From: Thermoanaerobaculia bacterium
Lineage (GTDB): Bacteria > Acidobacteriota > Thermoanaerobaculia > Gp7-AA8
Assembly: GCA_036375075.1 (NCBI GenBank)
Contig: DASUSN010000052.1
Span: forward strand, 26,195-90,194
Reading direction: 5' to 3'
DNA: 64,000 bases
In this document: one piece after another, positions 1,408 through 59,308 of the stretch
How the letters are laid out: every line of letters starts with the position of its first letter
Position numbering within the stretch: the stretch's first letter is position 1
Notes under the pieces: model-generated
Told to the model about the DNA's origin: nothing
What the model saw: only the letters and a program-made list of their open reading frames with translations
Database searches by the model: none
Made by a program: the position numbers and the translations under genes

Positions 1408-1456
1408 GGGACGAATAGGACAGATGGGACGAATAGGACCGTCCTATCTGTCCTAT
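1408..1456. repeat. Micro-repeat hairpin, family C (TAGGAC units), short copy
   Basis: GGGACGAATAGGACAGATGGGACGAATAGGACC is followed by GTCCTATCTGTCCTAT. Same unit as at 17168 and 47481. Lies 15 nt after the secA stop. Confidence 0.75.
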
Positions 1457-1463
1457 GGATCGG

Positions 1464-1552
1464 ATGTAGGGCGCGGCTTCAGCCCGCCTCCCCGTCGAAG
1501 CAGCCTCCTTCGTCGTCACCACCGGTACGTCCGGCGCTGAAGCCGCCGCCCC
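1464..1552. repeat. Palindromic element family B (ATGTAGGGCGCGGCTTCAGCC), degenerate copy
   Basis: The left arm ATGTAGGGCGCGGCTTCAGCCCGCCTC is identical to the left arm at 10894. The right partner is degraded; only GCTGAAGCCGC is retained (1533-1552). Confidence 0.6.
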
Positions 1553-1687
1553 GGCACGACTACCGCACTTGCCTCCTCATGCCCGTCCGCTTCCGTACCT
1601 CCGGCTGCCTCTTCAGCATCATCGCCTCCCTGCTTCTGACCTTGCTGCTCAACCTCGCCCTGCGCGCGTGCGCCTGAGAGGCTCGCC

Positions 1688-1975
1688 ATGAACGCCACCG
1701 AACGACTCCTCGGCCGATGGCGTCAGGTGGCCCCGGACCCGACTCCCGCGTCGATCTTCGTCACGTTCGAGCCGGATGGCCGCCTCCGCTATGCCCTCGA
1801 GGCCGGCACCACGCAGATCGTCCTGCTGACGTGGCGCGTGGATGGGGACGTGCTGGTCTCGCAACAACCGGGCGCGCCGCGTGAGGACCGAGCGCAGTTC
1901 CGCTTCGAAAGTGCCGGGCGGCTGGTTGTCGAGCGCGAGGGGGAACGCTACACCTACGAGCGCGCCGGCGCCTGA
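1688..1975 (+). CDS. Hypothetical small protein (95 aa)
   Basis: ATG is preceded by GAGAGG. Non-repetitive composition with no recognisable motif. Sits between secA and the large secreted protein gene. Confidence 0.45.
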   Translation: MNATERLLGRWRQVAPDPTPASIFVTFEPDGRLRYALEAGTTQIVLLTWRVDGDVLVSQQPGAPREDRAQFRFESAGRLVVEREGERYTYERAGA

Positions 1976-2027
1976 GGCGATGCGATCGCTGGTCGGCTCG
2001 CACCTCCCCCGACAGCACTCTCCGCTC

Positions 2028-2056
2028 TTGTGCTTTATGCTTCGATAGCATAAATT
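2028..2056 (+). promoter_or_regulatory. Candidate sigma-70-type promoter overlapped by an AT-rich inverted repeat
   Basis: TTGTGC (2028-2033), a 17-nt spacer, then TAAATT (2051-2056). TTATGCT (2035-2041) and AGCATAA (2047-2053) form 7-nt arms with a 5-nt spacer. An AT-rich islet in GC-rich DNA, 24 nt upstream of ATG 2080 (GGAGGG RBS at 2071). Confidence 0.3.
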
Positions 2057-2079
2057 ATCTTGCAGTAAGCGGAGGGTCC

Positions 2080-4767
2080 ATGAAACGCACCATCGGTCTC
2101 CTCTCCCTCGGGCTGTTCCTCGCCATCCCTGTTTTTGCCCGCGTCATCTCCTACGCGCCGTACACCAGTCGGGTGGCCGTTCCTTCCATCCAGGACCGCA
2201 CCTCCCGGCACTTCGTGCTGATCGAGGCGAAGGCCGAGGAGTTTCTGGATGCGTGGAATCGCGAGGTCGTGCTCTACGACTCGACGGGAGCCGAGGAGCC
2301 ACGGGTGATCACGCCCCCCGGAACGTCGGGATCATGGAGCGACACCGCGCTCTACGAGAAGGCCGGCAGGGCGCCCATGATCCTTGCGCTGAAGTACTCG
2401 CAGGCCATGTTCAGCGCGGACGCGACGAACTGGCAGCAAGTCGAGGGCCTGGACACGTTCTTCCTCGCGAGTGTCCTGGACGTCGACACCGGAGGCCCCT
2501 TCTCCCACGGCCTGTTCGCGCCGGTCGTCCTCGGCAACGACGACTGGCCATTCGTCGTCACGCTGAGCAACGGCGTATGGGCGATCGGCCGCACCGGCGA
2601 GGCGAGGCCGCTGCTGCAGACCAGCGGCGCGCGCGTCATCGGCCGCAACGCCGCCGGCGACCGGTTTCTCATCCGCCACGGAAGCACGATCTGGACCTCG
2701 ACCGTCGACGGGACGCTCACGAAGACCGCCGACCTCACCGTGGGCGGCTTCTTCGCCGGCTGGATCACGTCCGGCGGCGCCGCGTACATCGAGCGGGTCT
2801 ACGCGAGCGGCCGCCAGCTCTTCCTCGCCAGCGGCGGGTCGCTGACGCTGCTCGCGGACGCGGCGCCGGTTTACGTCCCCGCGGACGAGCCCCTCCCGCT
2901 GCGTGCTTTCGCCGTCCCGACCCATGATTACGAGGGCGCGTGGGTCATCGAGCGCGCCCCGGACTACCCGACGATCCTCTCGCGGCATACGCCGGCCGCG
3001 GGTCTGCAGAGGATGTGGATCGACGACGATGGCCCGCAGGTCGAGGCCCTCATCCCCGGCCCGTCAGGACAGACGGTGCTCATCCAGGTGCACCGCGACC
3101 GCGAGAGCGCCGAGCTCCAGAAGCCCATCATCGATCCGGCGCTCGCCGTGTGGCGCATCGGCCAGCCCGCTCCGCGGAGCTATGACGAGCTCTATCTCAA
3201 CGAGGAGCCGAACAAGGGTTTCGTAATCGTGAACGCCGACGAGATCGAGAGCGGCGCCACGTTCGTGTTCAACTCCGGTTTCGAGGCAGTCTGGCGTCCG
3301 GCCAGCCGTGTCTCCGCGCCGATCGGAGGGGGAGGCGACGTCACGCAGGAGTGGGGCGTCGTCCGCGGATCGCTCCGGCAGCGGCTCGTGCTGCCCGGCG
3401 TATCCCGGATGCGCGGGGCGTACGACTCCTTCTGGCAGACCGACGTCACGATCTACAACCCGCTCGCCGAGGCCCAGCAGGTGGACGTCCGCTACGTTCC
3501 CATGGGCGCGGCGAGCGCCGTCACCGCAACGCTGGCTCTCGCGCCGTACGAGATCCGGGCGATCCCCGACGTCCTGCGGTCGCTCTTCTTCCTCGAGTCC
3601 GGAGGAGGCGCGCTGCATCTGCTACCGGCCGTGGGCGTGAACGCCACCGCACGTACGTACAGCCGCAAAGACGGCGGCACGTACGGCTTCGGCATGCACG
3701 CCATCGACGCCTTCACCGCCGCGGGTCCGCGGTTCCCTCTGACCTTCGCCGGCGCGTTCCCGGGAAACCACTTCCGCACGAACGTGACGCTCACGGACAC
3801 GTCCGGCCGAGGCACACGTGCGAGCCTGCGGACCAGGACCATGTGGGACGACGACCTCCCGGCCGGAGAGCTCGACACGCCCGCCGCCGGAACGATGCAG
3901 TCCACGCTCGCGCCGCCCGACCGGTCGCACGAGGACGTCGGCGTCGCGTTGATCGTCGAGCCGGCGCGCGGCACCGCCCTGGCCACGGTGGTCGCGATCG
4001 ACAACCGGTCGAACGATCCCACCTGGTTCCCGCCTGATGTCCCCGGCACCGTGCCCCGCGCGATCCCGGTGATCGGACACGTGGACGGCGGCCACGGCTC
4101 GCAGTGGCGCTCGGACCTCTATCTCCACAACCCGCGCGACGGCTCGCGCTACCTGATCCTCACCGCGACTCCGTGGGACCGTCCCTGGCAGTGGCAAACG
4201 GCCTGGGTGCGCCTGAACGGACGCGAGACCCGCGTCGTCCGCGACGCGCTGTGGACGCTGTTCAGGCTCACCGGTGTCGCGCGGCTGCGGTACTCGAGCG
4301 CCGAGGACGAGCCGGGCGAGGGTGTGCGCGTGACGTCGCGGACGTACACGGTGGACGCGAACGGCGCGACGTACGGCTGTCTCGTCCCGCCGCTGACCGG
4401 CTTCCAGATCGGCACCCCCGGCGACAGGCTGGAGATCCTCGGCGTCAGCGCCGGTCCCGGTTTCCGCACGAACGTCGGTCTGGTCGACGTCTCCGACACG
4501 ACGACCTACCCCTCCCTGGTGCGCGTCCGCATCATCGGAGACCGGCAGCAGTTGCTCGACGAAACGCTCGTGGAAGTGCCGGCACGCGGCGGGCTGCAGC
4601 TCAACGACATCTTCGGCATGCACGGCATCACGCCGCCGCCCGCGGCGCTGCTGGTCGTCGACGTTCTGGACGGGAAGCAGATCGCCGCGTACGCCACGCT
4701 CGTCGACAACGTCACGAACGACTCGATCTACCTCGGCTCGCAGTTAGGGGCGAAGGAAACGAACTGA
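2080..4767 (+). CDS. Large secreted protein: signal peptide, ~400-aa N-terminal region (beta-propeller-like by composition), then two copies of an unnamed ~220-aa module
   Basis: N-terminal MKRTIGLLSLGLFLAIPVFA. Internal duplication: LVLPGV..SFWQTDV...ARTYSR..GGTYG...FRTNVTLTDTS...AIDNRSNDP versus IPVIG..GSQWRSDL...SRTYTV..GATYG...FRTNVGLVDVS...LVDNVTNDS. RBS present. Confidence 0.8.
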   Translation: MKRTIGLLSLGLFLAIPVFARVISYAPYTSRVAVPSIQDRTSRHFVLIEAKAEEFLDAWNREVVLYDSTGAEEPRVITPPGTSGSWSDTALYEKAGRAPMILALKYSQAMFSADATNWQQVEGLDTFFLASVLDVDTGGPFSHGLFAPVVLGNDDWPFVVTLSNGVWAIGRTGEARPLLQTSGARVIGRNAAGDRFLIRHGSTIWTSTVDGTLTKTADLTVGGFFAGWITSGGAAYIERVYASGRQLFLASGGSLTLLADAAPVYVPADEPLPLRAFAVPTHDYEGAWVIERAPDYPTILSRHTPAAGLQRMWIDDDGPQVEALIPGPSGQTVLIQVHRDRESAELQKPIIDPALAVWRIGQPAPRSYDELYLNEEPNKGFVIVNADEIESGATFVFNSGFEAVWRPASRVSAPIGGGGDVTQEWGVVRGSLRQRLVLPGVSRMRGAYDSFWQTDVTIYNPLAEAQQVDVRYVPMGAASAVTATLALAPYEIRAIPDVLRSLFFLESGGGALHLLPAVGVNATARTYSRKDGGTYGFGMHAIDAFTAAGPRFPLTFAGAFPGNHFRTNVTLTDTSGRGTRASLRTRTMWDDDLPAGELDTPAAGTMQSTLAPPDRSHEDVGVALIVEPARGTALATVVAIDNRSNDPTWFPPDVPGTVPRAIPVIGHVDGGHGSQWRSDLYLHNPRDGSRYLILTATPWDRPWQWQTAWVRLNGRETRVVRDALWTLFRLTGVARLRYSSAEDEPGEGVRVTSRTYTVDANGATYGCLVPPLTGFQIGTPGDRLEILGVSAGPGFRTNVGLVDVSDTTTYPSLVRVRIIGDRQQLLDETLVEVPARGGLQLNDIFGMHGITPPPAALLVVDVLDGKQIAAYATLVDNVTNDSIYLGSQLGAKETN

Positions 4768-4788
4768 CGGGAGTCGCGTCCAAGGAAC

Positions 4789-5256
4789 ATGCGAAAAGCC
4801 ACTGCCGCCATCCTGCTCACCCTTGCCTTCACCGCTTCCGCCGAAACCACCCTCGCCTTCCGTGTCACGCTCACCGACGGCCGTACCGCGCTCCTCGCGA
4901 ACCCGAAAGTCGACGAGCTGAAGCTGTCCGACGAGCTGCTCCAGCGCGCCGCCTCAAACCGCGTCCTCCTGCTCGACCACACCTCCGGAACGAGGTGGAA
5001 CTGGCTGATGCTCAGCTGGCTCGAGACCCACCCCGACGCGGAGTACGGCCTCAACGCCGCGGGCGTGGCCGCGATCGGCAAAGGCGCGGACATCGGCGTG
5101 ACGCCCATCGACCAGCACACCTACCGCGTACGCTGCCTCCACGAGCGGTGCGAAGTCACCGTTGCACGCGGTGACGAGAAGCAGACGACGGCGACGCTGA
5201 AGAACGGCCAGTCGCGGAACGTGGCGTACGGCAGCGACCTGCGCGTGGCGTTCTGA
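4789..5256 (+). CDS. Hypothetical secreted protein (155 aa)
   Basis: Signal-like N-terminus MRKATAAILLTLAFTASA. Starts 22 nt after the upstream gene on the same strand. No known motif. Confidence 0.55.
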   Translation: MRKATAAILLTLAFTASAETTLAFRVTLTDGRTALLANPKVDELKLSDELLQRAASNRVLLLDHTSGTRWNWLMLSWLETHPDAEYGLNAAGVAAIGKGADIGVTPIDQHTYRVRCLHERCEVTVARGDEKQTTATLKNGQSRNVAYGSDLRVAF

Positions 5257-5265
5257 CGCCCGATC

Positions 5266-5301
5266 TGGAGTGCGGAGGCGATCGATTGCCTCCGCACTCC
5301 A
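5266..5301. repeat. Palindromic element family A (TGGAGTGCGGAGGC arms)
   Basis: TGGAGTGCGGAGGC-gatcgatt-GCCTCCGCACTCCA with perfect 14-nt arms. Lies 10 nt after the stop at 5256. Other copies at 25216 and 60631. Confidence 0.9.
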
Positions 5302-5392
5302 AATTGCATGGCCCGTTCTGTCGTCTCATCGTCGGCGCACCGCGCCGTGTCCAGGCTCGGGATGACAGGTACTCGTGAGCTACCACACTCAT

Positions 5393-5417
5393 GGAACAGG
5401 CGACGACGTAGAATCAC
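5393..5417 (+). promoter_or_regulatory. 25-nt direct repeat, copy 1, containing a TAGAAT -10-like box 6 nt before the mntA GTG
   Basis: GGAACAGGCGACGACGTAGAATCAC. Copy 2 is exactly 600 nt downstream (5993-6017) with 1 mismatch. TAGAAT at 5409-5414, GTG at 5421. Confidence 0.5.
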
Positions 5418-5420
5418 CAC

Positions 5421-5735
5421 GTGATGCTCGCCATCGACATCGACAAAGACCGGCTCCGCGACTTCTGCCAGCGGTGGAAGATCAGGGAGCTCGCGCTTTT
5501 CGGGAGTGTCACGCGGCCCGACGAGTTCCGCCAGGACAGCGATGTCGACGTCATGGTGACGTTCGAACAGGACGCGAGGTGGACCCTTCTTCACATGGTG
5601 GACATGAAGGAACAGCTCGAAGAGTTGTTTGGAAGGCCGGTCGACCTGCTGACACGCCGCGGCGTGGAGCGAAGTCACAATCGAATCCGCCGCGAGTCGA
5701 TCCTGGACTCAGCGGTGGTGCTGGATGTTGCCTGA
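5421..5735 (+). CDS. mntA: Nucleotidyltransferase-domain antitoxin (MNT/MntA type)
   Basis: LFGSVTRPDEFRQDSDVDVMVTF (GS...DxD nucleotidyltransferase motif). 104 aa. Its stop overlaps the ATG of a DUF86/HEPN reading frame. Confidence 0.8.
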   Translation: MMLAIDIDKDRLRDFCQRWKIRELALFGSVTRPDEFRQDSDVDVMVTFEQDARWTLLHMVDMKEQLEELFGRPVDLLTRRGVERSHNRIRRESILDSAVVLDVA

Positions 5736-5960
5736 TCGCGCGTTCCTCGAAGACATCGTGTATTCGGCGCGGTTGGCGCTGCAATACCTTGAAGGCCTCT
5801 CCCTCGCCGACTTCGAAGCCGATCTCAGGACGTAGGACGCCGTCATCCGTCGCCTGGAGGTGATCGGTGAAGCGGTGAAATGGACCTGACCATCGTGTGG
5901 AGCACCGTTCACGACGATCTGCCTCCGTTGATCGCGGCAATCGAGGCCTATCTCTCGTAG
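5725..5960 (+). pseudogene. hepT: HEPN/DUF86 toxin (HepT type), inactivated by an in-frame TAG and an internal deletion/frameshift
   Basis: MLPDRAFLEDIVYSARLALQYLEGLSLADFEADLRT-TAG(5833-5835)-DAVIRRLEVIGEAVK, then TGA at 5887. The C-terminal IVWSTVHDDLPPLIAAIEAYLS is in another frame. The segment that would carry the Rx4-6H motif is missing. Confidence 0.7.
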
Positions 5961-5992
5961 CCAGCATGGACGCGACGCCCTGTACTGCTCCG

Positions 5993-6017: not shown

Positions 6018-6020
6018 GGT

Positions 6021-9390: not shown

Positions 9391-10899
9391 ATGCAGCCAA
9401 TGCAAGACCGGTACGATGTCGTCATTCTCGGGGGCGCCTTCAGCGGCGCGTCCGCCGCGATCCTGCTCCGCCGCGAGTGCCCGGACCTCAGCGTGCTGAT
9501 CGTAGAGAAGGCCGAGCGCTTCGACGAAAAGGTCGGCGAGGCCACGACCGAGATGTCGGCGATGTTCCTCACCCGCCGCCTGGCCATGTGGCGCCATCTC
9601 GAGAACGAGCAGCTCCCGAAGGAGGGGCTGCGCTACTGGTTCTCGAACGAGAAGGTGACGGGCCATGCGAACGCGAGCGAGACCGGCGGGTTCATCCGCA
9701 GCACGGTGCCGGCGTTCCAGCTTCGCCGCGACGCGCTCGACGAGCATCTGCTCGCCACAGCCGTGACCGAAGGCGCGGAGCTCTGGCGCGGCGCGCGCGC
9801 GACGGACGTGACTCTCGGCGACTTCGACCACAAAATCACGGTCGAGGGCCACACCATCTCTTGCCGCTGGCTGCTCGACGCCACCGGCCGTGTGAACTTC
9901 CTGGGCCGCAAGCTCGACCTGATCGAGCGCAACGACGAGCATCCGACCGCCGCGGTGTGGTGCCGGTGGAAGAACGTCCGGCACATCGACGACATCGCGG
10001 TGCGTGGCGGATTCGGGGCGACCAACGTCGGCTCGCGCCGGCTGGGCACGAACCACTACACCGGCTACGGTTACTGGATCTGGGTGATTCCGCTGCGCAA
10101 CGGCGAGACGAGCATCGGCGTCGTGTTCGACAAGCGTCTGATCGGGCTGCATCAGTCGAAGAACCGGGCCGAGGACTTCATCGCGTTCCTGAAAGCCATC
10201 CCCGCGCTGGCGGAGCTGCTCGAAGGCGCCGAGCCGCGGCTGGAAGACCTGCGGTTCTATTCGCACCTCGCTTACGCGACGAAGCAGTACATGGGCCGCG
10301 GCTGGTCGCTCCTCGGCGACGCGGCGGCGTTCCTCGATCCGTACTACTCGCCCGGCCTCGACCACGCCTCGTTTACCGCCGAGGCGACGGTGGAGATGAT
10401 CAAGAAGGACCGGATGGGCGAGGACCTCACCGCACGCATCGCGGAGCACAACGAGACGTTCGTGCGGTCGTACTGGCGCTTCTTCCGCGCGGTGTACAAG
10501 GACAAGTACTACTACATGGGCGAAGGCGACCTGCTCAGCGCGGCCATGCTCATCGACACGGCGCAGTACTACATCTTCGTGGTGATCCCGGCGTACAAGT
10601 TCCTCAAGCGCTTCGACTGGATGCCCGTGCTGGGCCCGAAGCCGGCGTTCCTCAGCTACCACATGATGCAGGTGTACAACCGCCGCTTCAAAGCGATCGC
10701 GGAAAAACGCCGCGCGGCCGGGCGGGCGGGGGCGCTGAACGACGGACGCCGCATCAAGGTGTACTTCAACCTCGGCCTGGCCCCGCTGCGGATGGTGTTT
10801 CGCGGCATGAAGTTGTGGCTACGCGCGGAGTGGGGCGCGCTGTGGATGCGCCGCGTGGCCCCGACCAAGGTGCCGCAGCCCGTCATCGAAAAAATGTAG
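9391..10899 (+). CDS. FAD-dependent oxidoreductase, flavin-dependent-halogenase-like (502 aa)
   Basis: YDVVILGGAFSGASAA (GxGxxG), GYWIWVIPL (WxWxIP), GDAAAFLDPYYSPGLD. Its TAG stop lies inside repeat family B. Confidence 0.7.
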   Translation: MQPMQDRYDVVILGGAFSGASAAILLRRECPDLSVLIVEKAERFDEKVGEATTEMSAMFLTRRLAMWRHLENEQLPKEGLRYWFSNEKVTGHANASETGGFIRSTVPAFQLRRDALDEHLLATAVTEGAELWRGARATDVTLGDFDHKITVEGHTISCRWLLDATGRVNFLGRKLDLIERNDEHPTAAVWCRWKNVRHIDDIAVRGGFGATNVGSRRLGTNHYTGYGYWIWVIPLRNGETSIGVVFDKRLIGLHQSKNRAEDFIAFLKAIPALAELLEGAEPRLEDLRFYSHLAYATKQYMGRGWSLLGDAAAFLDPYYSPGLDHASFTAEATVEMIKKDRMGEDLTARIAEHNETFVRSYWRFFRAVYKDKYYYMGEGDLLSAAMLIDTAQYYIFVVIPAYKFLKRFDWMPVLGPKPAFLSYHMMQVYNRRFKAIAEKRRAAGRAGALNDGRRIKVYFNLGLAPLRMVFRGMKLWLRAEWGALWMRRVAPTKVPQPVIEKM

Positions 10900-10980
10900 G
10901 GCGCGGCTTCAGCCCGCCTCTCGGACGGGGAGGGGGGAATGCCACCACCCACCGGGGCCGGCTGAAGCCGCGCCCTACAT
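10894..10980. repeat. Palindromic element family B, complete copy
   Basis: ATGTAGGGCGCGGCTTCAGCC ... GGCTGAAGCCGCGCCCTACAT, 21-nt perfect arms with a ~45-nt G-rich centre. Fills the gap between convergent genes (stops at 10897-10899 and 10983-10985). Confidence 0.9.
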
Positions 10981-10982
10981 TT

Positions 10983-12278
10983 TTACAACGCCGCCAGCGC
11001 CGCGCGTTTGACCTTGCCGCGTTCGTCCACGGGCATCTGATCGATCAGCTTCACGATGCGCGGGACCTTGTGGGACGAGAGTCGGGCGCGGCAGAACTCG
11101 CGCACCTGTTCGCGGGTGACCTCCGGCGTCGCGACGATCGCCGCGGCGACCACTTCGCCTCGCGCACCCGCGGGCTCGCCGTACACCTTCGCCTGCGACA
11201 CGCCGTCGATCTGCAGGAGCACGGCCTCGACTTCACGCGGGTTGACCTTCTTGCCGGCGGTGTTGATCAGGTCGCCGGCGCGGCCGACGAGGGCGATCTC
11301 GCCGTCCCGCTCTTCGACCAGATCGTCCGAAACGAACGTCCCGCCGACGAACGGCTGGAACGTGACGGCATCGAACAGATAGCCGGCCGCGACGGAACCG
11401 CTGCGGACGGACAGGCGGCGGGCGTCGGTCGTGAGCGTGACCCCGTCGAGGGCCGTGCCGACCGTGCCGCGCTCCACGGAGCCGCCGCGGCGGTCGTACG
11501 TGATCCCGCCGCACTCGCTGCAGCCGTAGAACGTATGAATGTCGATGCCGAACCGCTCCCGGAACTTCCGCGACGTCGACGCCGGCAGCGGCGCGCCCGC
11601 GGAAATGAACGTCCGGATCGTCTCGAACGACCCGTGCGCGGCCGTGGTCAGGTGCTCGAACACCATCGGGATCAGCGGCGCGACGGTGCAGCGGTACGCG
11701 TTCGCCAGATCGACGAGCGACTGCGGCAGGTAGTCGTTCGACACGACCACCGGCGTCCCCTGCACGAGCAGCGGCATGACCAGGTTGGAGAAGCCGTAGG
11801 AGTGGGAGAAGGGGATGGCGCCGAGGTTGATGTCGGACGGGGCGATGCCCATCGTGACGCAGATGTTCGTGGCGTCCGCGATGAGGTTCGCCTCGGTCGT
11901 GACGATCCCTTTCGGCGTCGCCGTCGAGCCGGACGTCAGCTTGACCAGCCGGGCATCCGCCGGCACGTCCGCGCGCCGGCCGATGTCGAAATGGCGACGG
12001 ATCGCGGCGACTTCATTGCCGGTCGCGTCGCGGTCGATCAGGAACACCACGAGGTCGAGCCGCACCGCCGCCAGGAACGTGGCGACGAGCTCGACCGAGT
12101 TCGGGAGCTGGATGGCGAAGCCGTCCCGTGCCCGGGCCCCGGACGCCGCGAGCTCGGCCGCGACCGCTTCCGATCGCTCCAGGAGCATCGCCCGCGTGGT
12201 CACGTGACCGGTCGCGCCGTCGATCAGCGCCGGCGCATCGGGCGCGGCCTGCACGAGAGAGACAAATCTTTGGAACAT
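10983..12278 (-). CDS. Adenylate-forming enzyme (acyl/aryl-CoA or -ACP ligase), short 431-aa form
   Basis: LTSGSTATPKGIV, YGCSECGGITYD, GDLINTAGKKVNPREVE. Start set at MFQRF (12278). Confidence 0.8.
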   Translation of the reverse strand: MFQRFVSLVQAAPDAPALIDGATGHVTTRAMLLERSEAVAAELAASGARARDGFAIQLPNSVELVATFLAAVRLDLVVFLIDRDATGNEVAAIRRHFDIGRRADVPADARLVKLTSGSTATPKGIVTTEANLIADATNICVTMGIAPSDINLGAIPFSHSYGFSNLVMPLLVQGTPVVVSNDYLPQSLVDLANAYRCTVAPLIPMVFEHLTTAAHGSFETIRTFISAGAPLPASTSRKFRERFGIDIHTFYGCSECGGITYDRRGGSVERGTVGTALDGVTLTTDARRLSVRSGSVAAGYLFDAVTFQPFVGGTFVSDDLVEERDGEIALVGRAGDLINTAGKKVNPREVEAVLLQIDGVSQAKVYGEPAGARGEVVAAAIVATPEVTREQVREFCRARLSSHKVPRIVKLIDQMPVDERGKVKRAALAAL

Positions 12279-27890: not shown

Positions 27891-29381
27891 ATGCGAGCTT
27901 TCTCCATCGTGATCCTGCTGTTGGCGGTCCCGCTGTTCGCGCAGCGGTACGACGACGCGATCACCGTGAACGTCGTGGACGTCCCGGTGTACGTCGAGCG
28001 GTTCGGGAAGCCGGTCACGGGACTCACGCGCGACGACTTCGAGCTGTTCGTCGGCGGCAAGCCGCATCCGATCGAGTACTTCGACGTGCTGGACGAGCAG
28101 CAGGCCGAGCAGCAGCGGGAAGCGGCCGGCGCGCCGGCCGATCTCGCCCGCCGGCGCCTGGTAGTCCTGCTGTTCCACGTCGAAGCGCCGAGCCATTCCC
28201 TGCAGCGCGCGCAGAAGGCCGCGGTGAAGTACGTGGCCGCGGCCGCGGCCACCGACACGCTGGCGGTGGCCACCGTCAGCGCGCCGGGCGTGCTGTTCAT
28301 CGTGCCGTTCACGAACGACCGCGTCGCGGTGCAGCGGGCGATCGCCACGCTCCGGCCGAGCGCCGCGCGCGATCCGTTCCGCGTCGCGACCCTCGGCGTG
28401 GAGCGCGACATCTGGGAAGAAGATCATCCCGCGTTCCAGCCGCCGGCGATCGCAGGGTGGCACGTCGATGCGGCGATCGACATGGACTCCGTCCGGAACG
28501 ATTACGACAACCGCAGCCTCATCGAGAACCTCTCCGATCTCGCCGGCCGTCTCGCGCCGCTCGAAGGGCTGAAGGAAGTGGTGCTGTTCTCCGAAGGGAA
28601 CGGCGATCCCGCCGCGGCCTATACGTGGGCGGGCACGCAGCACGCCACCATCCGCATGCACCAGCACTATCGCGCGGCGGGCGTCATCCTGAACGCCGTC
28701 GACATCGGCACGCCGCGCGCGCCGGGCGGCGACGCGCTGGTCTCCGGGCTCTGGGCGGCAGCGGATGGCATGCCCGATTTTCTCACGTCCTCATTTCTCT
28801 GGTCGCTGGCGCTCGACACCGGCGGGATCGCGACGTTCTCCCTTCCCGAACTGGAGAAGCGCCGCCGCGCCGGCTATCTGATCGGGTTCCGGGCGCCGCC
28901 CGGCCGGAGGAGCAGCTCGATCCGCGTGCACGTGAAGAACGTGCCGCTCCTCACCGACGTCCGCTACCGCAAGGCCTACACCCTCGGCCACGAAACGAAG
29001 GACGAAGGGCTCTTCCTCGCGGACGCGCTGCTGAACGACATCCCGCAGAACGGGGTGACGCTGGACCTCGCGGTGAACGGCACGTGGGTGGCCGCGAGCA
29101 TCCCCGGCGTGGAGCTGCTGTCGTATGCGTCCGGGCAGCACCGGCTGCACCTCGACGTCTACTTCTACGTCTTCGACCGGGAACAGCGGCCGGTCGCGTG
29201 GAATCGCATGCAGATCGCCGTGGACCTGGAGAAGGGGCGCGAGTTCCTGAGCGCGCATCCCTATGCGATGAGGCAGGAGTTCGTGCTCGAGCCGGGGCGC
29301 TACGTCGCCAAGGCGCTGGTGCGGATCAAGGGAACGGATCGGGTGGGTTTCGAGCGAACGGAATTCGAGGTGAAACAATGA
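27891..29381 (+). CDS. Secreted VWA-related protein (acidobacterial VWFA-related N-terminal domain type), paralogue 1
   Basis: Signal MRAFSIVILLLAVPLFA. ITVNVVDVPVYVERFGKPVTGLTRDDFELFVGGKPHPIEYFDV, LVVLLFH. About 60 percent identical by eye to the next gene. Confidence 0.75.
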   Translation: MRAFSIVILLLAVPLFAQRYDDAITVNVVDVPVYVERFGKPVTGLTRDDFELFVGGKPHPIEYFDVLDEQQAEQQREAAGAPADLARRRLVVLLFHVEAPSHSLQRAQKAAVKYVAAAAATDTLAVATVSAPGVLFIVPFTNDRVAVQRAIATLRPSAARDPFRVATLGVERDIWEEDHPAFQPPAIAGWHVDAAIDMDSVRNDYDNRSLIENLSDLAGRLAPLEGLKEVVLFSEGNGDPAAAYTWAGTQHATIRMHQHYRAAGVILNAVDIGTPRAPGGDALVSGLWAAADGMPDFLTSSFLWSLALDTGGIATFSLPELEKRRRAGYLIGFRAPPGRRSSSIRVHVKNVPLLTDVRYRKAYTLGHETKDEGLFLADALLNDIPQNGVTLDLAVNGTWVAASIPGVELLSYASGQHRLHLDVYFYVFDREQRPVAWNRMQIAVDLEKGREFLSAHPYAMRQEFVLEPGRYVAKALVRIKGTDRVGFERTEFEVKQ

Positions 29382-30931
29382 GATCGATCGCCCTCGCAGT
29401 GATGCTTTCGGTAGTTCCGGCCTTGGCGCAGCCCATTCTGCCCCAGCGCTTCGACGACACGATCACGATCAACGTGGTCGACGTCCCCGTATACGTCGAG
29501 CGCTTCGGCGTGCCGGTCAGGGGACTCACGCGCGACGACTTCACGCTGTTCGTCGACGGCAAGCCGCATCCGATCGAGTACTTCGACGTGATCGACGAAG
29601 GCGTGGCGGCGGAAGCCGCGCCGGACGCGCCGGCCGACCTCAAACGCCGGCGTCTGATCGTCCTGCTGTTCGATCTCAGCGCCTCGCCGTACTCGCTGCA
29701 GCGTGCGCGGGAGGCGGCGATGAAGTACGTCGCGGAGGGCGTTGCGGGCGACACCTTTGCGGTGGCGACCGTCGGGCGCTCCGATCTTCGCTTCATCGCC
29801 GCGTTCACGACCGACCGGGTCGCGGTGCAGCGGGCCATCGCCACGCTCGCGCCGAGCGCGTCGCGCGATCCGTTCCGCGTGGCGACGCTCGACGACGAGC
29901 GCGCGCGCTGGGCCGGGACCCTTGGCGGCGCCGAGGCGGGACTGGGTGCGTTCAGCGACATCTGGGGCGATGACATCGCACCCGGCGGCATGGGCGTGTC
30001 GTCGGCGGCCGAGAACGCGGCGGCCTTCGAGCGGACCGCGCAGGAGATGGAGGCGCTGGAGGAGGAGAGCCTCAGCATCGGGTTCGTCGAGAGCCTGAGC
30101 GCGCTCGCCGACCGGCTCGCGCCGCTGGAAGGAGTCAAACAGGTCGTGCTCCTGTCCGAGCGCCAGTCGGGCCGCGACGGCCAGGGGCCGGTGATGCAGC
30201 GCACCACGCGCCTCCACGCGCGTTACCGCGCCGCCGGCGTGATCCTCAATGCCGTCGACATCCATCCGCCGAGAGTGCCTTCCGGCGCCGCGATCTCCAG
30301 CACGCCGGACGGACGTACCAGGGCGCAGAGCGCGCTGGCTTCCGAGTTCCTGTACTCGCTGGCGCTCGACACCGGCGGCGTAGTCACGTCGTCGCTGCCG
30401 CAACTGCTGGAGCGCAACCGCCACGCGTATGTGATCGGCTTCCGCGCGCCGGAAGGAGCGGCGCGGGAGTCGATCCGTGTCGAAGTGAAGAACCTTCCGC
30501 GCCTCACCGACGTCCGCTACCGCAAGTCGTACGACCTCCGTGCCGCGAAGAGCGCGGATCAGGGTCTGTTTCTCGCCGACACCCTGCTGAACGACATCCC
30601 GCAGAACGGCGTCACGCTGGGCCTCGCCGTGAAAGGCACCCAGGTCACGGCGAGCATCCCCGGAGTCGAGCTGCTCTCCTACGCGTCCGGCAGGCCGCTG
30701 CCGCTGGAAGTGTTCTTCTACGTCTTCAACGAAGAAGGCCGGCCCTTCTCGTGGAACGTGGCGCAGATCGCGGTGGACCTGGAGAAGGGACGTGACTTCC
30801 TCAGCGCCCACCCGTACACCATGCGGCAGGATCTCGTGCTGCAGCCCGGGCGGTACGTCGTCAAGGCGCTCGTCCGCGTCGCGGGGACGGATCGTGTCGG
30901 TTTCCAGCGCGCGCCGCTGGTGGTGCAGTAG
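29378..30931 (+). CDS. Secreted VWA-related protein, paralogue 2
   Basis: ATGA overlap with paralogue 1. ITINVVDVPVYVERFGVPVRGLTRDDFTLFVDGKPHPIEYFDV. C-terminal LFLADTLLNDIPQNGVTL...GRYVVKALVRVAGTDRVGF matches paralogue 1. Confidence 0.75.
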   Translation: MRSIALAVMLSVVPALAQPILPQRFDDTITINVVDVPVYVERFGVPVRGLTRDDFTLFVDGKPHPIEYFDVIDEGVAAEAAPDAPADLKRRRLIVLLFDLSASPYSLQRAREAAMKYVAEGVAGDTFAVATVGRSDLRFIAAFTTDRVAVQRAIATLAPSASRDPFRVATLDDERARWAGTLGGAEAGLGAFSDIWGDDIAPGGMGVSSAAENAAAFERTAQEMEALEEESLSIGFVESLSALADRLAPLEGVKQVVLLSERQSGRDGQGPVMQRTTRLHARYRAAGVILNAVDIHPPRVPSGAAISSTPDGRTRAQSALASEFLYSLALDTGGVVTSSLPQLLERNRHAYVIGFRAPEGAARESIRVEVKNLPRLTDVRYRKSYDLRAAKSADQGLFLADTLLNDIPQNGVTLGLAVKGTQVTASIPGVELLSYASGRPLPLEVFFYVFNEEGRPFSWNVAQIAVDLEKGRDFLSAHPYTMRQDLVLQPGRYVVKALVRVAGTDRVGFQRAPLVVQ

Positions 30932-30940: not shown

Positions 30941-31030
30941 GTTCCTCGGTTCCTCGGAGTTCCTCGGGTTCCTCGGAGGAAATGGGCCGTCCGCCGAGGA
31001 ACTCCGAGGAACCGAGGAACTCCGAGGAAC
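30941..31030. repeat. Micro-repeat hairpin, family D (GTTCCTCGG / CCGAGGAAC units)
   Basis: GTTCCTCGGTTCCTCGGAGTTCCTCGGGTTCCTCGGAGG-loop-CCGAGGAACTCCGAGGAACCGAGGAACTCCGAGGAAC. Confidence 0.9.
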
Positions 31031-31842: not shown

Positions 31843-33489
<1,647 letters not shown>

Positions 33490-34676: not shown

Positions 34677-34772
34677 GTCATCCCGAGCCCAGCGAGGGAT
34701 CTGGGCGGGTGGGCGGAGGCATGTGCATCGTGCCCCGCCCGCCCAGGTCCCTCGCTCGACGCTCGGGATGAC
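34677..34772. repeat. Palindromic element family E-prime (GTCATCCCGAGC ... GCTCGGGATGAC), abutting the family E copy
   Basis: GTCATCCCGAGCCCAGCGAGGGATCTGGGCGGG ... CCCGCCCAGGTCCCTCGCTCGACGCTCGGGATGAC. Confidence 0.85.
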
Positions 34773-44997: not shown

Positions 44998-45005
44998 TGC
45001 CCGCT

Positions 45006-45106
45006 GTCATCCTGAGCCGCGTAGACGGCGAAGGACCCCCTGCGGTTCCCGCAGCCCGCGCCGGAATCAGGGGGTCGTTCGCCGCGCTACGCCGGCTCAG
45101 GATGAC
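45006..45106. repeat. Palindromic element family E
   Basis: GTCATCCTGAGCCGCGTAGACGGCGAAGGACCCC...GCCGCGCTACGCCGGCTCAGGATGAC. Followed by a tandem 14-mer CTGCCCCCTGCGCC x2 (45119-45146). Confidence 0.9.
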
Positions 45107-45198
45107 ACCGCTTCCCTCCTGCCCCCTGCGCCCTGCCCCCTGCGCCCTGGTGTGATACCTTGCGCCGCCGTAATTACTCACCCGCGGAGGGGCTCCCT

Positions 45199-46524
45199 GT
45201 GGATATCGCTGTCATCGGTACCGGGTATGTCGGTCTCGTCACCGGCGCCGGGCTGTCGGACTTCGGCAACGACGTGATCTGCGTCGACGTCGACGTCAGA
45301 AAAATCGACGCACTCAACAACGGCGTCATCCCCATCTACGAGCCCGGCCTGGACACGCTGGTCAGCAAGAACGTCGGCGAGGGACGCCTGCGCTTCTCCA
45401 CCGACCTCGCCGAAGCCATTACCTCGTGCCGCGCCATCTTCATCGCCGTCGGCACCCCTCCGAAGCCCGACGGCTCAGCCGACCTCCGCTACGTCGAGGA
45501 GGTCGCCCACACGATCGCGAAGCACATGAACGGGCCGAAGATCGTCATCACCAAGTCGACCGTGCCCATCGGCACCGGCCGGATGATCGAGCAGATCATC
45601 GAGTCCTACGGCACGGGGCACAAGGCGTCGATCGTCTCCAACCCCGAGTTCCTCCGCGAGGGCTCGGCCATCGAAGACTTCATGAAGCCCGACCGCGTGG
45701 TCATCGGCGCGACCGATCCCGAGGCGGCGGACATGATGAAGGAGATCTACGCGCCGCTGCACTCGCTGGAGATCCCGTTCGTGGTCACGAACGTGGAGTC
45801 CTCCGAGCTGATCAAGTACGCCGCGAACGGCTTCCTGGCCGTGAAGATCACGTTCATCAACGAGATCGCCGTCGTCTGCGAGAAGGTCGGCGCGGACGTG
45901 CACCACGTCGCCATCGGCATGGGCCTCGACTCGCGCATCGGCCCGAAGTTCCTCCAAGCCGGCCCCGGCTTCGGCGGCTCGTGCTTCCCCAAGGACACGA
46001 GCGCGATGGCCGACATCTCCCGCCGCCACGGCTACGAGTTCCAGATCATGGAGGCCGTGCTGCGCGTGAACGACGCGGTCAAGCTGCGCATGATCGACAA
46101 GATCGTGGCCGCGCTCGACGGCGACGTCGCTGGCAAGACCGTTGCGATGCTCGGCCTGGCGTTCAAGCCTGAGACCGACGACATGCGCGATTCCCCGACC
46201 ATCCCCATCATCAAAGGCCTCCAGCAGCGCGGCGCAGCCATCCGCGCCTACGACCCGGCCGCCACCGGAAACGCGAAAGCGATCTTCCATGACGTCGAGT
46301 ACTGCGCGGACGCCTACCAGACCGCGGAAGGCGCGGACGTGCTGGTGCTGGCGACGGAGTGGAACGAGTTCCGCGCGCTGAACTTCGAGCGCATCGGCAA
46401 GGCCCTGCGCCAGCCGGTGGTCGTCGACCTCCGCAACGTCTACGACCCGCACCGCATGGCCGCCCTCGGCTTCCGCTACTCGTCCGTCGGCCGCGTCGAT
46501 GACCGGCGCAAGAGGCCGCGCTGA
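45199..46524 (+). CDS. ugd: UDP-glucose 6-dehydrogenase
   Basis: [23 protein letters not shown] (catalytic Cys). GTG 45199 is preceded by GGAGG. Confidence 0.9.
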
Positions 46525-47483
46525 TGGCTCCTTCGGCCACGCTCAGGACAGGCCGTGCGCTCATCACCGGCGGCGCGGGCTTCCTCGGCTCGCACCTCTG
46601 CGAGCTGTTCCTCGCCAACGGCCATGAAGTGGTCTGCATGGACAACTTCATCACCGGCTCGCCGGACAACATCAAGCACCTCTTTGGCCGCGACGGCTTC
46701 ACGTTCATCAAGCAGGACGTGACGAACTACATCCACATCGACGGCCCGCTCGACTACGTCCTGCACTTCGCGTCTCCGGCCAGCCCCATCGACTATCTCG
46801 AGAAGCCCATCCAGACCCTCAAGGTCGGCTCCCTCGGCACCCACAAGACCCTGGGCGTGGCCAAGGACAAAGGCGCGCGCTACCTGCTCGCGTCGACGTC
46901 GGAGACCTACGGCGACCCGCTCGTCCACCCGCAGCGCGAGGACTACTGGGGCAACGTGAACCCGGTCGGCCCGCGCGGCGTGTACGACGAGGCCAAGCGC
47001 TTCGCCGAGGCCATGACCATGGCCTATCACCGCTTCCATGGCGTGGACACCCGCATCGTGCGCATCTTCAACACCTACGGCGAGCGGATGCGCGTCAACG
47101 ACGGCCGCGTCGTCCCCGCCTTCATCTCCCAGGCGCTGCGCAACGAGCCGCTGACGGTCTTCGGCGACGGCTCCCAGACCCGCTCGTTCTGCTACGTCTC
47201 CGACCTCATCGACGGCATCTACCGCCTGCTGATGTCCAACGAGGTGCAGCCGACCAACATCGGCAATCCCGCGGAGATGACCGTCCTCCAGTTCGCGGAA
47301 GTCATCAAGAAGCTCACCGGCACCAGCGCCCCCATCGACTTCCGCCCCCTCCCCGAGGACGACCCCAAGATCCGCCGCCCGGACATCACCAAAGCCCGCA
47401 CCATCCTCGGCTGGGAGCCGCGCGTGCCATTGGAAGAGGGGTTGACGCGGACGATCGACTACTTCCGCACCGTGGTTCAGTAG
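46524..47483 (+). CDS. UDP-glucuronate decarboxylase (UDP-xylose synthase-like SDR)
   Basis: [32 protein letters not shown] junction with ugd. Its TAG stop is the first unit of repeat family C. Confidence 0.85.
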
Positions 47484-47576
47484 GACGAATAGGACGAATA
47501 GGACCTATAGGACAGATAGGACCTATCCGTCCTATCCGTCCTATCCGTCCTATAGGTCCTATACGTCCTACGTCCG
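47481..47576. repeat. Micro-repeat hairpin, family C, longest copy
   Basis: TAGGACGAA TAGGACGAA TAGGACCTA TAGGACAGA TAGGACC / TATCCGTCC x3 TATAGGTCC TATACGTCC (9-nt period). Confidence 0.92.
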
Positions 47577-54448: not shown

Positions 54449-54455
54449 ATGACGA

Positions 54456-54556: not shown

Positions 54557-54562
54557 TAACCA

Positions 54563-56953: not shown

Positions 56954-56965
56954 GCCTATGGCGGA

Positions 56966-57076
56966 GTTCCTCGGGTTCCTCGGGTTCCTCGGAGTTCCTC
57001 GGGTTCCTCGGGGGAGGGGGAGGATCACTCCGAGGAACTCCGAGGAACCGAGGAACTCCGAGGAACTCCGAGGAAC
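56966..57076. repeat. Micro-repeat hairpin, family D, between permease 3 and the second NBD gene
   Basis: GTTCCTCGG x5 (with 1-nt variants), loop GGGGAGGGGGAGGATCACT, then CCGAGGAAC x5. Confidence 0.9.
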
Positions 57077-57085
57077 CGTAACCCT

Positions 57086-57748
57086 ATGATCCGCACACAC
57101 AAACTCACCAAATCCATCCCCGTCGGGGGCGGCCGCCTCTTCCTCCTCCGCGACATCGACCTGGCCGTCGACGAGGGCGACTTCGTCTCCATCACCGGGC
57201 CCTCCGGCGCCGGCAAGTCCACGCTCCTGCACATCCTCGGCATGCACGACGCCGACTGGGAAGGGGAGTACACGCTCGACGGCAACGCCGTGCACAAGCT
57301 CTCCGCGAAGCAGCGCGCCGACCTGCAGCGCCGCACCATCGGCTTCGTCTTCCAGAGCTATCACCTCATCGACGACCTCACCGTCGCGGAGAACCTCGAC
57401 GTCCCGCTGCGCTACCGCGACGTCTCCCGGAGCGAGCGGCAGAGCCTCGTCGCCGACGTGCTCGACCGCTTCCGCATCGTCGGCAAGAAGGACCTCTACC
57501 CGTCGCAGCTCTCCGGCGGCCAGCAGCAGCTCGTCGGCGTCGCCCGCGCGGTGATCGCCAACCCGCGGGTCATCCTCGCCGACGAGCCGACCGGCAACCT
57601 CCACTCCGATCAGGCGCGTGAGATCATGGCCCTCTTCCGCGAGCTCAATCGCGCGGGGACGACCATCGTGCAGGTGACGCATTCCGAGGAGAACGCCAGC
57701 TACGGAAATCGCGTCGTGAAACTGCGCGACGGGTGGATGGTGGCGTGA
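57086..57748 (+). CDS. ABC transporter ATP-binding protein (MacB/LolD-type NBD), divergent at signature and D-loop positions
   Basis: [33 protein letters not shown] (Leu where Arg is usual), [11 protein letters not shown] (His where the D-loop Asp is usual), QVTHS. Confidence 0.88.
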
Positions 57749-59100
57749 CGCCCTCCGTCCTCGCGGCCGACGATCAGCCGCAGATCCTCTCCGCATTGCG
57801 CCTCCTGCTGCGCAGCGAAGGTTTCGACATCGAGACCGTCTCCTCGCCCGCGGCCGTCTATCGCGCCGTCGAGGCGAAGACATTCGACGCCGTCCTCATC
57901 GACCTCAACTACGCGCGCGACACGACCAGCGGCGCCGAGGGGTTGGAGTTGCTCGAGCGGCTGCACGCGTACGACGAGCTGCTGCCCGTCGTGGTCATGA
58001 CCGCCTGGGGCTCCGTCGACCTCGCCGTCGCCGCGATGCGCGCCGGCGCGCGCGACTTCGTGCAGAAGCCGTGGGAGAACGAGAAGCTCCTGGCCACGCT
58101 GCGGACGCAGATCGAGCTGGGGCGCGCGCTCCGCAAGGGACAGCGCCTCGAAGCGGAGAACCGCCTCCTGCGCGGCGAGGACAAGCGCCCCACGCTGATC
58201 GCCGAGTCGCGCGCCATGCGTCCCGTCCTGGAGATGATCGAGCGCATCGGCCCCTCGGACGCCAGCGTCCTGATCACCGGCGAGAACGGCACGGGCAAGG
58301 GCGTCGTCGCGCGCGCGCTGCATGCCGTGTCGCGGCGCTCGCCGCGCGCGCTGGTCTCCGTGAACGTCGGGGGGCTGCCCGAGTCGCTCTTCGAGAGCGA
58401 GCTGTTCGGGCACGTGAAGGGCGCGTTCACCGACGCGAAGGCCGACCGCGTCGGCCGCTTCGAGCTCGCCGACGGCGGCACGCTGTTCCTCGACGAGATC
58501 GCGAACGTGCCCCTCGCGCAGCAGGCCAAGCTCCTGCGCGTGCTGGAGACCGGCGAGTTCGAGCGCGTCGGCTCGTCGCGGACCCGGAAGGCGGACGTAC
58601 GGCTGCTCTCCGCGACGAACGCCCGGCTCGACGCCGAGGTCGAGGCGGGGAGGTTCCGCCAGGACCTGTACTTCCGGCTGCGCACCGTCGAAATCACCAT
58701 CCCGCCGCTGCGCGATCGCCGCGACGACATCCCCACGCTCGCCAGCCACTTCCTCGGCATCCACGCCACGCGCTACCGCAAGCACGTCAGCGGCTTCGAG
58801 GAGTCGGCCATGAAGACCCTGCTCTCTCACGACTGGCCCGGGAACGTGCGCGAGCTGGATCACGCCATCGAAGGCGCCGTGCTGATGACCACCGGCACCG
58901 CCATCCGCGCCGCCGACCTCGGCCTCGCCTCCTCCGCTGGCAAGACCCCGCGCATCGAGGACATGAGCATCGAGGAAGTCGAGCAGCTCCTGATCCAGAA
59001 GGCCCTGGCGCGCTACGGCGGCAACGTCAGCCGTGCGGCCGAGGCGCTGGGGTTGTCGCGGAGCGCGTTGTATCGTCGCATCCAGCGATACGGCCTGTGA
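57745..59100 (+). CDS. Sigma-54-dependent response regulator (NtrC family)
   Basis: Receiver domain (DAVLIDLNY), AAA+ [17 protein letters not shown] loop, [10 protein letters not shown]-terminal Fis-type [28 protein letters not shown] overlap with the NBD stop; GTG 57733 is an alternative start. Confidence 0.88.
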
Positions 59101-59108
59101 GTGGCGCC

Positions 59109-59308
59109 GAGTCGTCGAGTCTTCAAGTCGTCGAGTCTTCAAGTCGTCGAGTCTCAAAGTCTCAAAGTCGCAAAGTCGCAAAGCGGGTGACGACGCCCGG
59201 TCCCCTTTGAGACTTTGAGACTTGAGACTTGAGACTTTGCGACTCGACGACTCGACGACTCGACGACTCGGCGACTCGACGACTCGAAGACTCGAAGACT
59301 GTGAGACT
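59109..59308. repeat. Composite 200-nt micro-repeat hairpin, family F (16-nt and 8-nt units)
   Basis: Left arm: GTCGTCGAGTCTTCAA x2.5, GTCTCAAA x2, GTCGCAAA x2. A ~23-nt loop. Right arm: TTTGAGAC/TTGAGAC x4, GACTCGAC x6, GACTCGAA x2. Confidence 0.92.

Follow-up and report, generated by a model that had tools for sequence, protein, structure and literature searches.

Hairpins with inverted short tandem arrays as arms at gene junctions of Thermoanaerobaculia

The DNA examined here, the whole of which is called the window, is a 64-kb stretch of bacterial chromosome (67.6% GC) from an uncultured soil member of the Thermoanaerobaculia (Acidobacteriota); homologues of its trigger factor, at 80-98% identity, carry the names of Thermoanaerobaculia or Acidobacteriota metagenome-assembled genomes (MAGs). 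Between its genes lie long imperfect hairpins whose arms are tandem arrays of very short units, and these are the subject of this report. The neighboring genes named with Pfam are housekeeping and transport genes: secA, a GT2-domain open reading frame (ORF), an M28 peptidase, a ParA-like ATPase, a crp-family regulator, a CDP-alcohol phosphatidyltransferase, duplicated MacB/FtsX permeases, an ABC ATPase, an NtrC-type regulator, a histidine kinase and rho. The trigger-factor gene (tig) was named from its homologues, and two further genes are presumably clpX and lon, being named from synteny with the annotated loci L001-L003. Two tRNAs, tRNA-Lys and tRNA-Leu, are also present. The original prediction, made from the letters of the sequence, had spoken of 11 intergenic hairpins and one inside a coding sequence (CDS), but nine intergenic sites and one CDS site were listed and found (Table 1).

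At each of the ten sites, Tandem Repeats Finder (TRF) detected tandem arrays with a period of 7, 8, 9 or 10 nt flanking a short spacer. The arms had been predicted to be complementary and proved to be so (73-100% over 27-72 nt), and every site folded into a single long hairpin with a stem of 17-60 bp, a minimum free energy (MFE) of -33 to -124 kcal/mol and a z-score of -4.0 to -10.1; none of 200 dinucleotide shuffles folded as well. The spurious peptides that the arrays were expected to generate (GRIGPIG, SYRSYSSY and EELRGTEELRGT) were likewise present. Two details of the predicted layout had to be revised. The loop, which had been put at 7-25 nt of unique sequence, is a spacer of 1 to about 47 nt that has its own inner stem in several elements (21785-21879 and 59109-59308), and in the TAGGAC family three positions per unit are variable instead of the one proposed.

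The sites were also sought with a scanner that requires reverse-complementary 8-mers on at least three antidiagonals, i.e., arms that pair in several registers, together with periodicity of the arms. Nine of the ten sites were recovered and no others were reported in the window; the missed site, 1408-1456, is a short member with 3.7 left units, two right units and a 17-bp stem. When the window was simulated 40 times with a third-order Markov model, 38 simulations gave no hit and two gave one hit, a chance expectation of about 0.05 hits per window against the nine found. The elements are real, abundant and lineage-wide, and are neither a chance pattern nor an artefact. A search of the window against Rfam, as had been suggested at the outset, matched the two tRNAs and none of the elements at the gathering threshold. 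The possibility of an assembly artefact was considered separately and rejected, as independent JGI, ENA and NCBI assemblies, megabase contigs included, contain elements that are similar or identical and whose flanks are conserved.

Table 1. Tandem-armed hairpins of the window, with predicted folding and genomic setting.
Position	Strand	Element	MFE (kcal/mol)	z-score	Setting
1408..1456	+	short TAGGAC-family hairpin, units GGGACGAA/TAGGACAGA vs GTCCTATCT; TRF period 9 x3.7	-32.9	-5.97	14 nt past the secA stop codon (1393); SecA domains found
17168..17243	.	TAGGACNNN 9-nt hairpin, TAGGAC family	-47.6	-8.1	occupies the entire gap of the convergent GT2-domain ORF (end 17170) and M28 peptidase gene (end 17241); contains both stop codons, that at 17170 being the first TAG of the first unit
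19013..19112	-	GTCGACGA-type 8-mer quasi-palindrome, in CDS		-6.5 (+ strand), -4.0 (coding strand)	inside ParA-like ORF 18785-20095
20837..20926	+	GTGATGA heptamer hairpin	-44.5	-5.1	between crp-family regulator and CDP-alcohol phosphatidyltransferase genes; likely ATG start (20924-20926) overlaps the last unit
21785..21879	+	TTAGCTN heptamer hairpin, inner perfect 12-bp GC stem	-66.4	-9.5	starts 4 nt past tRNA-Leu, ends 8 nt ahead of the trigger-factor ATG
30941..31030	+	GTTCCTCGG(A) 9/10-nt hairpin, 4 units/arm	-70.9	-7.6	upstream of GTPase and rho genes
47481..47576	+	TAGGACNNN 9-nt hairpin, ~5 units/arm	-60.9	-8.7	epimerase/dehydratase gene 46524-47483 terminates at the first TAG of the first unit, which serves as its stop codon
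54456..54556	+	GTTCCTCGG(A) hairpin	-82.5	-9.8	between two MacB/FtsX permease genes; 7 nt past stop, 6 nt ahead of ATG
56966..57076	+	GTTCCTCGG(A) hairpin, 5 units/arm	-92.7	-9.5	between permease and ABC ATPase genes; 12 nt past stop, 9 nt ahead of ATG
59109..59308	+	composite 8/16-nt hairpin, ~200 nt, units GTCGTCGAGTCTTCAA, GTCTCAAA, GTCGCAAA, inner unique stem	-123.9	-10.1	between NtrC-type regulator and histidine kinase genes

The distribution of the elements beyond the window was surveyed in 1.58 Mb of sequence from 137 related loci. Syntenic loci were gathered by exact-protein look-up, by a scan of a genome collection (55 species-level Thermoanaerobaculia loci, with Sutterella and Spirochaetales as outgroups) and by a metagenome scan with trigger factor, which added 80 loci with a best identity of at most 86%; relatives at 93-96% protein identity were obtained via the NtrC-type gene. 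An exact look-up of the ABC ATPase protein gave no record. The scanner found 191 distinct elements, or 1.4 per 10 kb, and found none in the outgroup loci (Sutterella and Spirochaetales, two of them at 66-67% GC). The period was 7 nt in 153 elements (80%), 8 nt in 24 and 9 nt in five, and the number of units per arm had a median of 4.3 and a mode of 4. Median values for the spacer, the whole element and its MFE were 22 nt, 84 nt and -52.5 kcal/mol. The claim that one layout is shared by unrelated units was borne out on a far larger scale than the five unit families of the window, as the survey comprises 103 distinct families within one bacterial class; a run of at least three G or C occurs in 20 of these 103 and in none of the window units.

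The elements sit almost exclusively at gene junctions and in many cases take up the entire stretch from a stop codon to the next start. Although coding sequence makes up 84% of bases, only eight of the 191 elements lie in called CDS (96% are outside genes), and 135 lie between co-directional genes; elements occupy 13% of co-directional, 8% of convergent and 6% of divergent gaps. These CDS and gap figures depend on crude, GC3-based gene calls for the survey loci. In 47% of the co-directional cases the element begins within 10 nt of the stop codon. The CDS site of the window lies in a variable Ser/Arg/Asp-rich linker of the ParA-like protein, which is otherwise 91-97% conserved. Its 8-nt units give a codon-compatible period of 24 nt, and the linker has a 10-aa insertion (30 nt) in the window relative to L001. 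This site may represent the same phenomenon tolerated in a disordered segment, its membership of the class being uncertain.

Comparison with the intergenic regions of relatives, which the original prediction had recommended, revealed presence/absence variation of whole elements at orthologous junctions. Between the crp-family regulator and the transferase, the unit is GTGATGA in the window, AGAGGGC in L001, AGTCCTG in L005 and GAGTGAT in L003; L001 and the window share 95-97% nucleotide identity, yet have different units at this junction. Between tRNA-Leu and tig, the corresponding units are TTAGCTN in the window, GAAGGAT in L001, CAGTTGA in L005 and GAAGGAT/GAAGGCC in L003, and alignments run at near-identity to the last tRNA base and resume a few bases before the ATG, with no similarity between. 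Similarity of the window to its 95-97% identical relative falls sharply at element boundaries. Among 36 distinct tRNA-Leu-to-tig spacers, ten are 10-29 nt long, 26 are hairpins of 78-152 nt (25 of them with period 7) and none is 30-77 nt long.

The junctions that hold the 54456, 56966 and 59109 elements in the window were checked in relatives with 93-96% identity in the NtrC-type protein. The states encountered were empty junctions, other tandem-armed hairpins, unrelated unique-arm hairpins and, in L149, nested hairpins. Between the two permease genes (54456), L151 has a 10-nt spacer without an element, L152 a GTGCTGA heptamer hairpin and L150 an unrelated hairpin. At the permease-ATPase junction (56966), the genes of L150 and L152 overlap by ATGA, with no element, and L149 has an unrelated hairpin; at the regulator-kinase junction (59109), the genes of L150 overlap by GTGA, again with no element, and L149 has a nested compound hairpin. 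Two of the empty junctions are stop/start overlaps (ATGA or GTGA). At the convergent 17168 site, the TAGGAC 9-mer of the window was found again in L020, as a TAGGACCGA hairpin, and L005 has an unrelated unique-arm hairpin. Since junction states differ among relatives and spacer lengths at the tRNA-Leu-to-tig junction are bimodal, elements are gained and lost as whole units. Gene junctions in this lineage are therefore general landing places for hairpin repeats.

Individual unit families are also dispersed. An identical heptamer unit was shared by 14% of within-locus element pairs and by 2.3% of between-locus pairs, a 6-fold difference. The GTTGTCN family occupies at least eight sites in several species with exactly 4+4 units. 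Its copies have unrelated loops, but their inner junction is conserved (GTTGTCTGTG...CAGACAAC) and the variant units usually follow one another in the same order. Two copies that flank tig in L016 have common non-repeat outer ends, and the GTTCCTCGG unit of the window recurs at a non-orthologous site in L014. Target-site duplications were sought as k-mer matches between the flanks, which occurred at the chance level for k = 3 to 6 (k = 4: 5 observed against 6.8 expected).

The two strands were compared in the 135 co-directional cases. The more stable fold was that of the sense strand in 69 and of the antisense strand in 65 (p = 0.67), and 264 G·U pairs were counted in the sense and 270 in the antisense direction; this test for RNA-level selection (G·U against A·C, sense against antisense stability) thus gave no asymmetry. 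The absence of the sense-strand G·U excess that would be expected from RNA-only compensatory selection suggests that it is in DNA that the arms are kept complementary. The arms nevertheless differ in composition according to gene direction: counted once per family, the arm nearer the upstream gene has more G than C in 63 unit families and more C than G in 14 (p = 1e-9). In the arm adjoining the following start codon, ATG and GTG triplets are 5x less frequent. Stop codons in the three frames of the 5' arm are not more frequent than letter composition predicts (0.38 vs 0.37), and the arms do not differ in Shine-Dalgarno (SD)-like motifs, which were sought in the 3' arm.

On balance, these observations favor discrete non-coding elements of about 80-140 nt, in which a variable center is flanked by two short tandem arrays in inverted orientation, each arm usually measuring 4 x 7 nt. 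In layout and placement, they are the Thermoanaerobaculia counterpart of two repeats that are already described, the inverted heptamer pairs of Xanthomonas (PMC4692102) and the hairpins of short tandemly repeated repetitive (STRR) sequences in cyanobacteria (PMC2670836), and the original statement that no described family fits is not supported.

Because the elements lie between co-directional genes, often in place of an overlap or a spacer of about 10 nt, their transcription within operons is almost certain. In the transcript, a stem of 25-60 bp would act as an intercistronic RNA stem-loop. Long stems block 3' exonucleases and serve as substrates for double-strand-specific RNases, and the stems considered here may likewise form an exonuclease barrier, a target for a double-strand RNase, or both; they could also uncouple the translation of neighboring genes. 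Repetitive extragenic palindromic (REP) elements stabilize upstream mRNA and, near a stop codon, affect translation, effects that were reportedly described by Newbury in 1987 and by Liang, Rudd and Deutscher in 2015. From what is known of REP elements, of bacterial interspersed mosaic elements (BIMEs) and of intercistronic stem-loops, a stem so close to stop and start must affect termination and re-initiation, and elements that split genes which overlap in close relatives must alter translational coupling and operon mRNA structure. The complementarity of the arms would be kept by copying or conversion at the DNA level, not by RNA-level compensatory selection. As no individual copy appears to be essential, survival of the elements for selfish or neutral reasons is no less probable than an adaptive role, and they may persist partly as tolerated, self-propagating structural repeats.

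Several points weigh against discrete elements of this kind. The mirroring of unit variants between the two arms is weak (mean z = 0.52), no mobilizing gene was identified and target-site duplications were absent. The unit of the 17168 element overlaps a conserved gene end, the 3' end of the M28 peptidase gene, so that a local origin fits as well as insertion. Many of the 191 elements occupy orthologous junctions around one gene, tig, and are therefore not independent samples. Transcription, processing and effects on neighboring genes were deduced from position only. Finally, three direct heptamer arrays and no paired ones were found in cyanobacterial DNA, namely in the initial 50 kb of plasmid alpha from Nostoc PCC 7120.

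The hairpins could instead have arisen in situ as a functionless, immobile by-product of mutation, slippage gradually expanding a 7-9-nt seed and intrastrand template switching copying it into the other arm. As far as the work of Mrazek (2007) is relayed in PMC4679880, the long simple repeats met most often in many prokaryotes are heptanucleotides, which are ascribed to polymerase slippage. The absent G·U asymmetry fits such DNA-level copying, and the match of the 17168 unit to the conserved end of the peptidase gene, the stop codons inside first units and the 30 nt gained by the CDS copy in the window lineage also speak for it, as does the single-base chain that the tig-junction units form across species (GAAGGCA, GAACGCA, GAATGCA, GAATGAA). 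However, the size gap between spacers, which has no small intermediates, and a unit number held tightly around four instead of broadly spread disfavor gradual growth, and with it the gradual form of the slippage-expanded hairpins that had originally been proposed. The occurrence of one family with one variant order at non-orthologous sites in different species, the 6-fold enrichment of unit sharing within genomes and an orientation rule relative to gene direction are also poorly accommodated, and we consider an origin of this kind rather unlikely. Selection for terminators or 3'-end protectors, in which each junction needs a hairpin and tandem arms are the easiest route to a long one, would account for the unrelated hairpins found at one junction in different relatives (the GT2/M28 site and the 54456, 56966 and 59109 junctions), for the hairpin upstream of tig, which persists in 26 of the 36 distinct spacers despite the turnover of its sequence, and for the closeness of nearly half of the co-directional elements to a stop codon. 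Its weakness is that the same junctions are empty in close relatives, two of them with overlapping genes, which implies that no hairpin is required there. Moreover, the elements lack the layout of an intrinsic (Rho-independent) terminator, a short GC-rich stem with a U-run behind it: their stems measure 17-60 bp, and a run of at least four T is absent 3' of every window element, a canonical terminator-like site with a T-run being present elsewhere, at ~25190-25215. In addition, most elements lie inside apparent operons directly ahead of the next start codon, and sense-strand G·U pairs are not enriched. We consider selection of this kind decidedly improbable.

Strand-symmetric complementarity, strict periodicity and a fixed unit number would also be compatible with structural sites in DNA. 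A nucleoid, replication or recombination protein might read them as cruciforms or periodic duplexes, or they might be G-quadruplexes (G4), which GGGAATC repeats form in vitro (PMC4692102). With a run of three or more G or C in only 20 of 103 families, G4 formation cannot generally explain either the preference for four units or the orientation rule. More than 100 unrelated units argue against one sequence-specific binder, the orientation follows gene direction and no candidate protein was found; DNA sites of this type are very unlikely. Even less credence can be given to ordinary MITEs (miniature transposable elements with inverted repeats), or hairpins of paired REP sequences (REPINs), whose movement would depend on a DDE transposase or a RAYT (Y1 transposase). 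Polymorphic presence, dispersed families and nesting with MITE-like hairpins are in keeping with such mobility, and a Y1_Tnp gene does occur in a relative. The flanks, however, show no more target-site duplications than chance, which disfavors DDE-type transposition, and the arms consist of tandem arrays in place of unique terminal inverted repeats. The sole Y1_Tnp gene seen, a truncated RAYT/IS200-like gene at the edge of L002, is flanked not by tandem-armed hairpins but by classical GGCTTCAGCC and GCCCGCGTAGCGGGC palindromes, which crowd 250 nt beside it (L002 60-300); the arrangement resembles a classical REP-RAYT system that is distinct from the elements with tandem arms.

Beyond the reading as discrete elements favored above lies a bolder proposal, which we hold to be improbable: that a dedicated, sequence-independent process builds or copies quantal 4 x 7-nt palindromes at junctions, with a polarity set by transcription or replication (G-rich arm first), and is also behind the Xanthomonas pairs and STRR. 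Candidates would be an enzyme that repeats a short seed before folding back, or hairpin-specific single-strand transposition without fixed ends. If true, it would define a widespread, unrecognized class of genetic elements that are structure-defined and not sequence-defined.

Other repeats and features were noted in the same DNA. The distinction that had been drawn from REP/BIME elements and MITEs on the basis of tandem arms stands, and hairpin families with unique arms occur separately in the window. A REP-like palindrome, GTAGGGCGCGGCTTCAGCC(C/G)GCC, is present singly at 1463-1490, after the first hairpin, and as a 38-nt inverted pair at 10881-10993 that forms a hairpin of -80 kcal/mol; the GGCTTCAGCC and GCCCGCGTAGCGGGC palindromes beside the Y1_Tnp gene of L002 are of this same kind. 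Hairpins of about 100 nt with unique arms and the ends TGTCATCCTGAGC...GCTCAGGATGACA lie at 34677-34772, 45005-45107 and 60674-60776 (-80 to -91 kcal/mol, z = -7 to -10) and constitute a MITE-like dispersed family; a further copy is nested in the tandem-armed hairpin at the NtrC-type/kinase junction of L149 (~4720-4900). Beside one of these MITE-like hairpins, at 45118-45149, is an unpaired C-rich heptamer array (CCTGCCC/CCTGCGC, 4.6 copies). It ends 10 nt ahead of a UDP-glucose dehydrogenase ORF (45160) and fits the rule of C-rich sequence before a start, without a partner arm.

The terminator-like stem and T-run at ~25190-25215 follow ORF 23868-25151 (clpX by synteny) and are themselves followed, within 25190-25255, by a perfect hairpin, GGAGTGCGGAGGCAACCGGTTGCCTCCGCACTCC. 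In L149 (2510-2628), the junction of the permease and ATPase genes, at which the window has a GTTCCTCGG element, is filled by a member of the GGAGTGCGGAGGCAACCGGTTGCCTCCGCACTCC family whose loop contains a second, nested hairpin. In the product of the rho gene (31843-33489), about 135 aa of N-terminal extension precede the Rho_N domain, with an in-frame 9-nt repeat, GAAGGCCGA, in 11 copies (32073-32171) that encodes a Lys/Ala/Glu/Asp-rich segment. Upstream of rho, two overlapping ORFs with high GC3 in different frames, 27891-29381 and 28457-30931 (824 aa), have no Pfam hit; the overlap may reflect a frameshift, a mis-call or two genes. The ORF end at 30931 is the upstream gene boundary for the 30941 hairpin.

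Tandem repeats of heptamers were already recognized in cyanobacteria in 1990, and in Xanthomonas and other bacteria in 2007-2015. The present clade provides a cleaner natural experiment, as the 4+4 design recurs with more than 100 unrelated units under Xanthomonas-like rules of placement and G-first orientation. It separates the hairpin design from any particular sequence and supplies natural filled and empty pairs of the same operon junctions. As most units have no G-quadruplex capacity, the leading explanation falls away and attention shifts to the paired-array hairpin as such. In practice, the elements give rise to spurious ORFs and probably interrupt assemblies of soil Acidobacteriota made from short reads; since they turn over rapidly, they are candidate strain markers.

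Among the closest known counterparts are those of Xanthomonas campestris and X. axonopodis, in which about 185 GGGAATC heptamer arrays per genome, with a clear preference for four units, were reported (Rehm et al. 2015, PLoS One, PMC4692102). In 70-75 instances per genome, two arrays on opposite strands are near each other as an inverted pair that could adopt a stem-loop or cruciform structure; they are found for the most part between co-directional ORFs, and most are transcribed. The G-rich array is in sense orientation within 50 bp of a stop codon or overlapping it, and in antisense orientation just ahead of the next ORF. Array length varies by species and the type of arrangement is constant, in a high-GC host (PMC4692102). 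The Thermoanaerobaculia elements resemble these pairs in having tandem units of about 7 nt, inverted arrays of about four units and co-directional placement, with the G-rich arm by the stop codon and the C-rich arm before the next start codon. They differ in that Xanthomonas has essentially one G-tract family (GGGNATC), which is read as G-quadruplex-forming, whereas 103 families, mostly without G-runs, were found here. Units of 8, 9 and 10 nt, the phylum Acidobacteriota and the unrelated units at one junction in close relatives are further differences.

The STRR sequences of cyanobacteria are dispersed 7-bp tandem repeats that reportedly form hairpins between co-transcribed genes such as hupS and hupL, for which transcript stability or translational coupling has been proposed, the function being unknown (PMC2670836); several unit families occur per genome (PMC2408588). 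The likeness to the present elements, which rests on the literature, lies in dispersed intergenic 7-bp tandem repeats and in hairpins between genes. STRR hosts, in contrast, are low-GC cyanobacteria, many of their arrays are unpaired and direct, and the units found here differ and are far more diverse; hairpin size and a 4+4 organization are not documented in PMC2670836 or PMC2408588. One array on the Nostoc plasmid (L148, 4152-4185), CTTCTGCC/CCTCTGC, has the canonical unit of the AAGGCAG and AGAGGGC families of Thermoanaerobaculia, probably a coincidence given about 1,170 possible unit classes.

Also comparable are the TAACTGA heptamers of marine Beggiatoaceae, cyanobacteria and Bacteroidetes, which occur in 2-6 copies, are overwhelmingly intergenic and oriented with the downstream gene (MacGregor 2015, PMC4679880), and end a few nucleotides before the start codon, with 169 direct sets against one indirect (PMC4679880). 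These share heptamer tandem arrays and intergenic location with the present elements, but are almost always direct, do not form hairpins and have one unit sequence. Tandem-heptanucleotide sites of Geobacter metallireducens have been drawn as fold-backs (PMC2700814). REP, BIME and REPIN elements are similar in being intergenic, hairpin-forming and dispersed, with presence/absence polymorphism and no target-site duplication; the arms of REP elements, however, are unique imperfect palindromes of 20-40 nt with one sequence per family, and those described here are tandem arrays of more than 100 units. As the Xanthomonas pairs follow matching rules and STRR sequences are also reported to form hairpins, the architecture itself is no novelty. 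Novel are the phylum, the number of unit families, the 8-10-nt units, the turnover at fixed junctions and the predominance of units free of G-runs.

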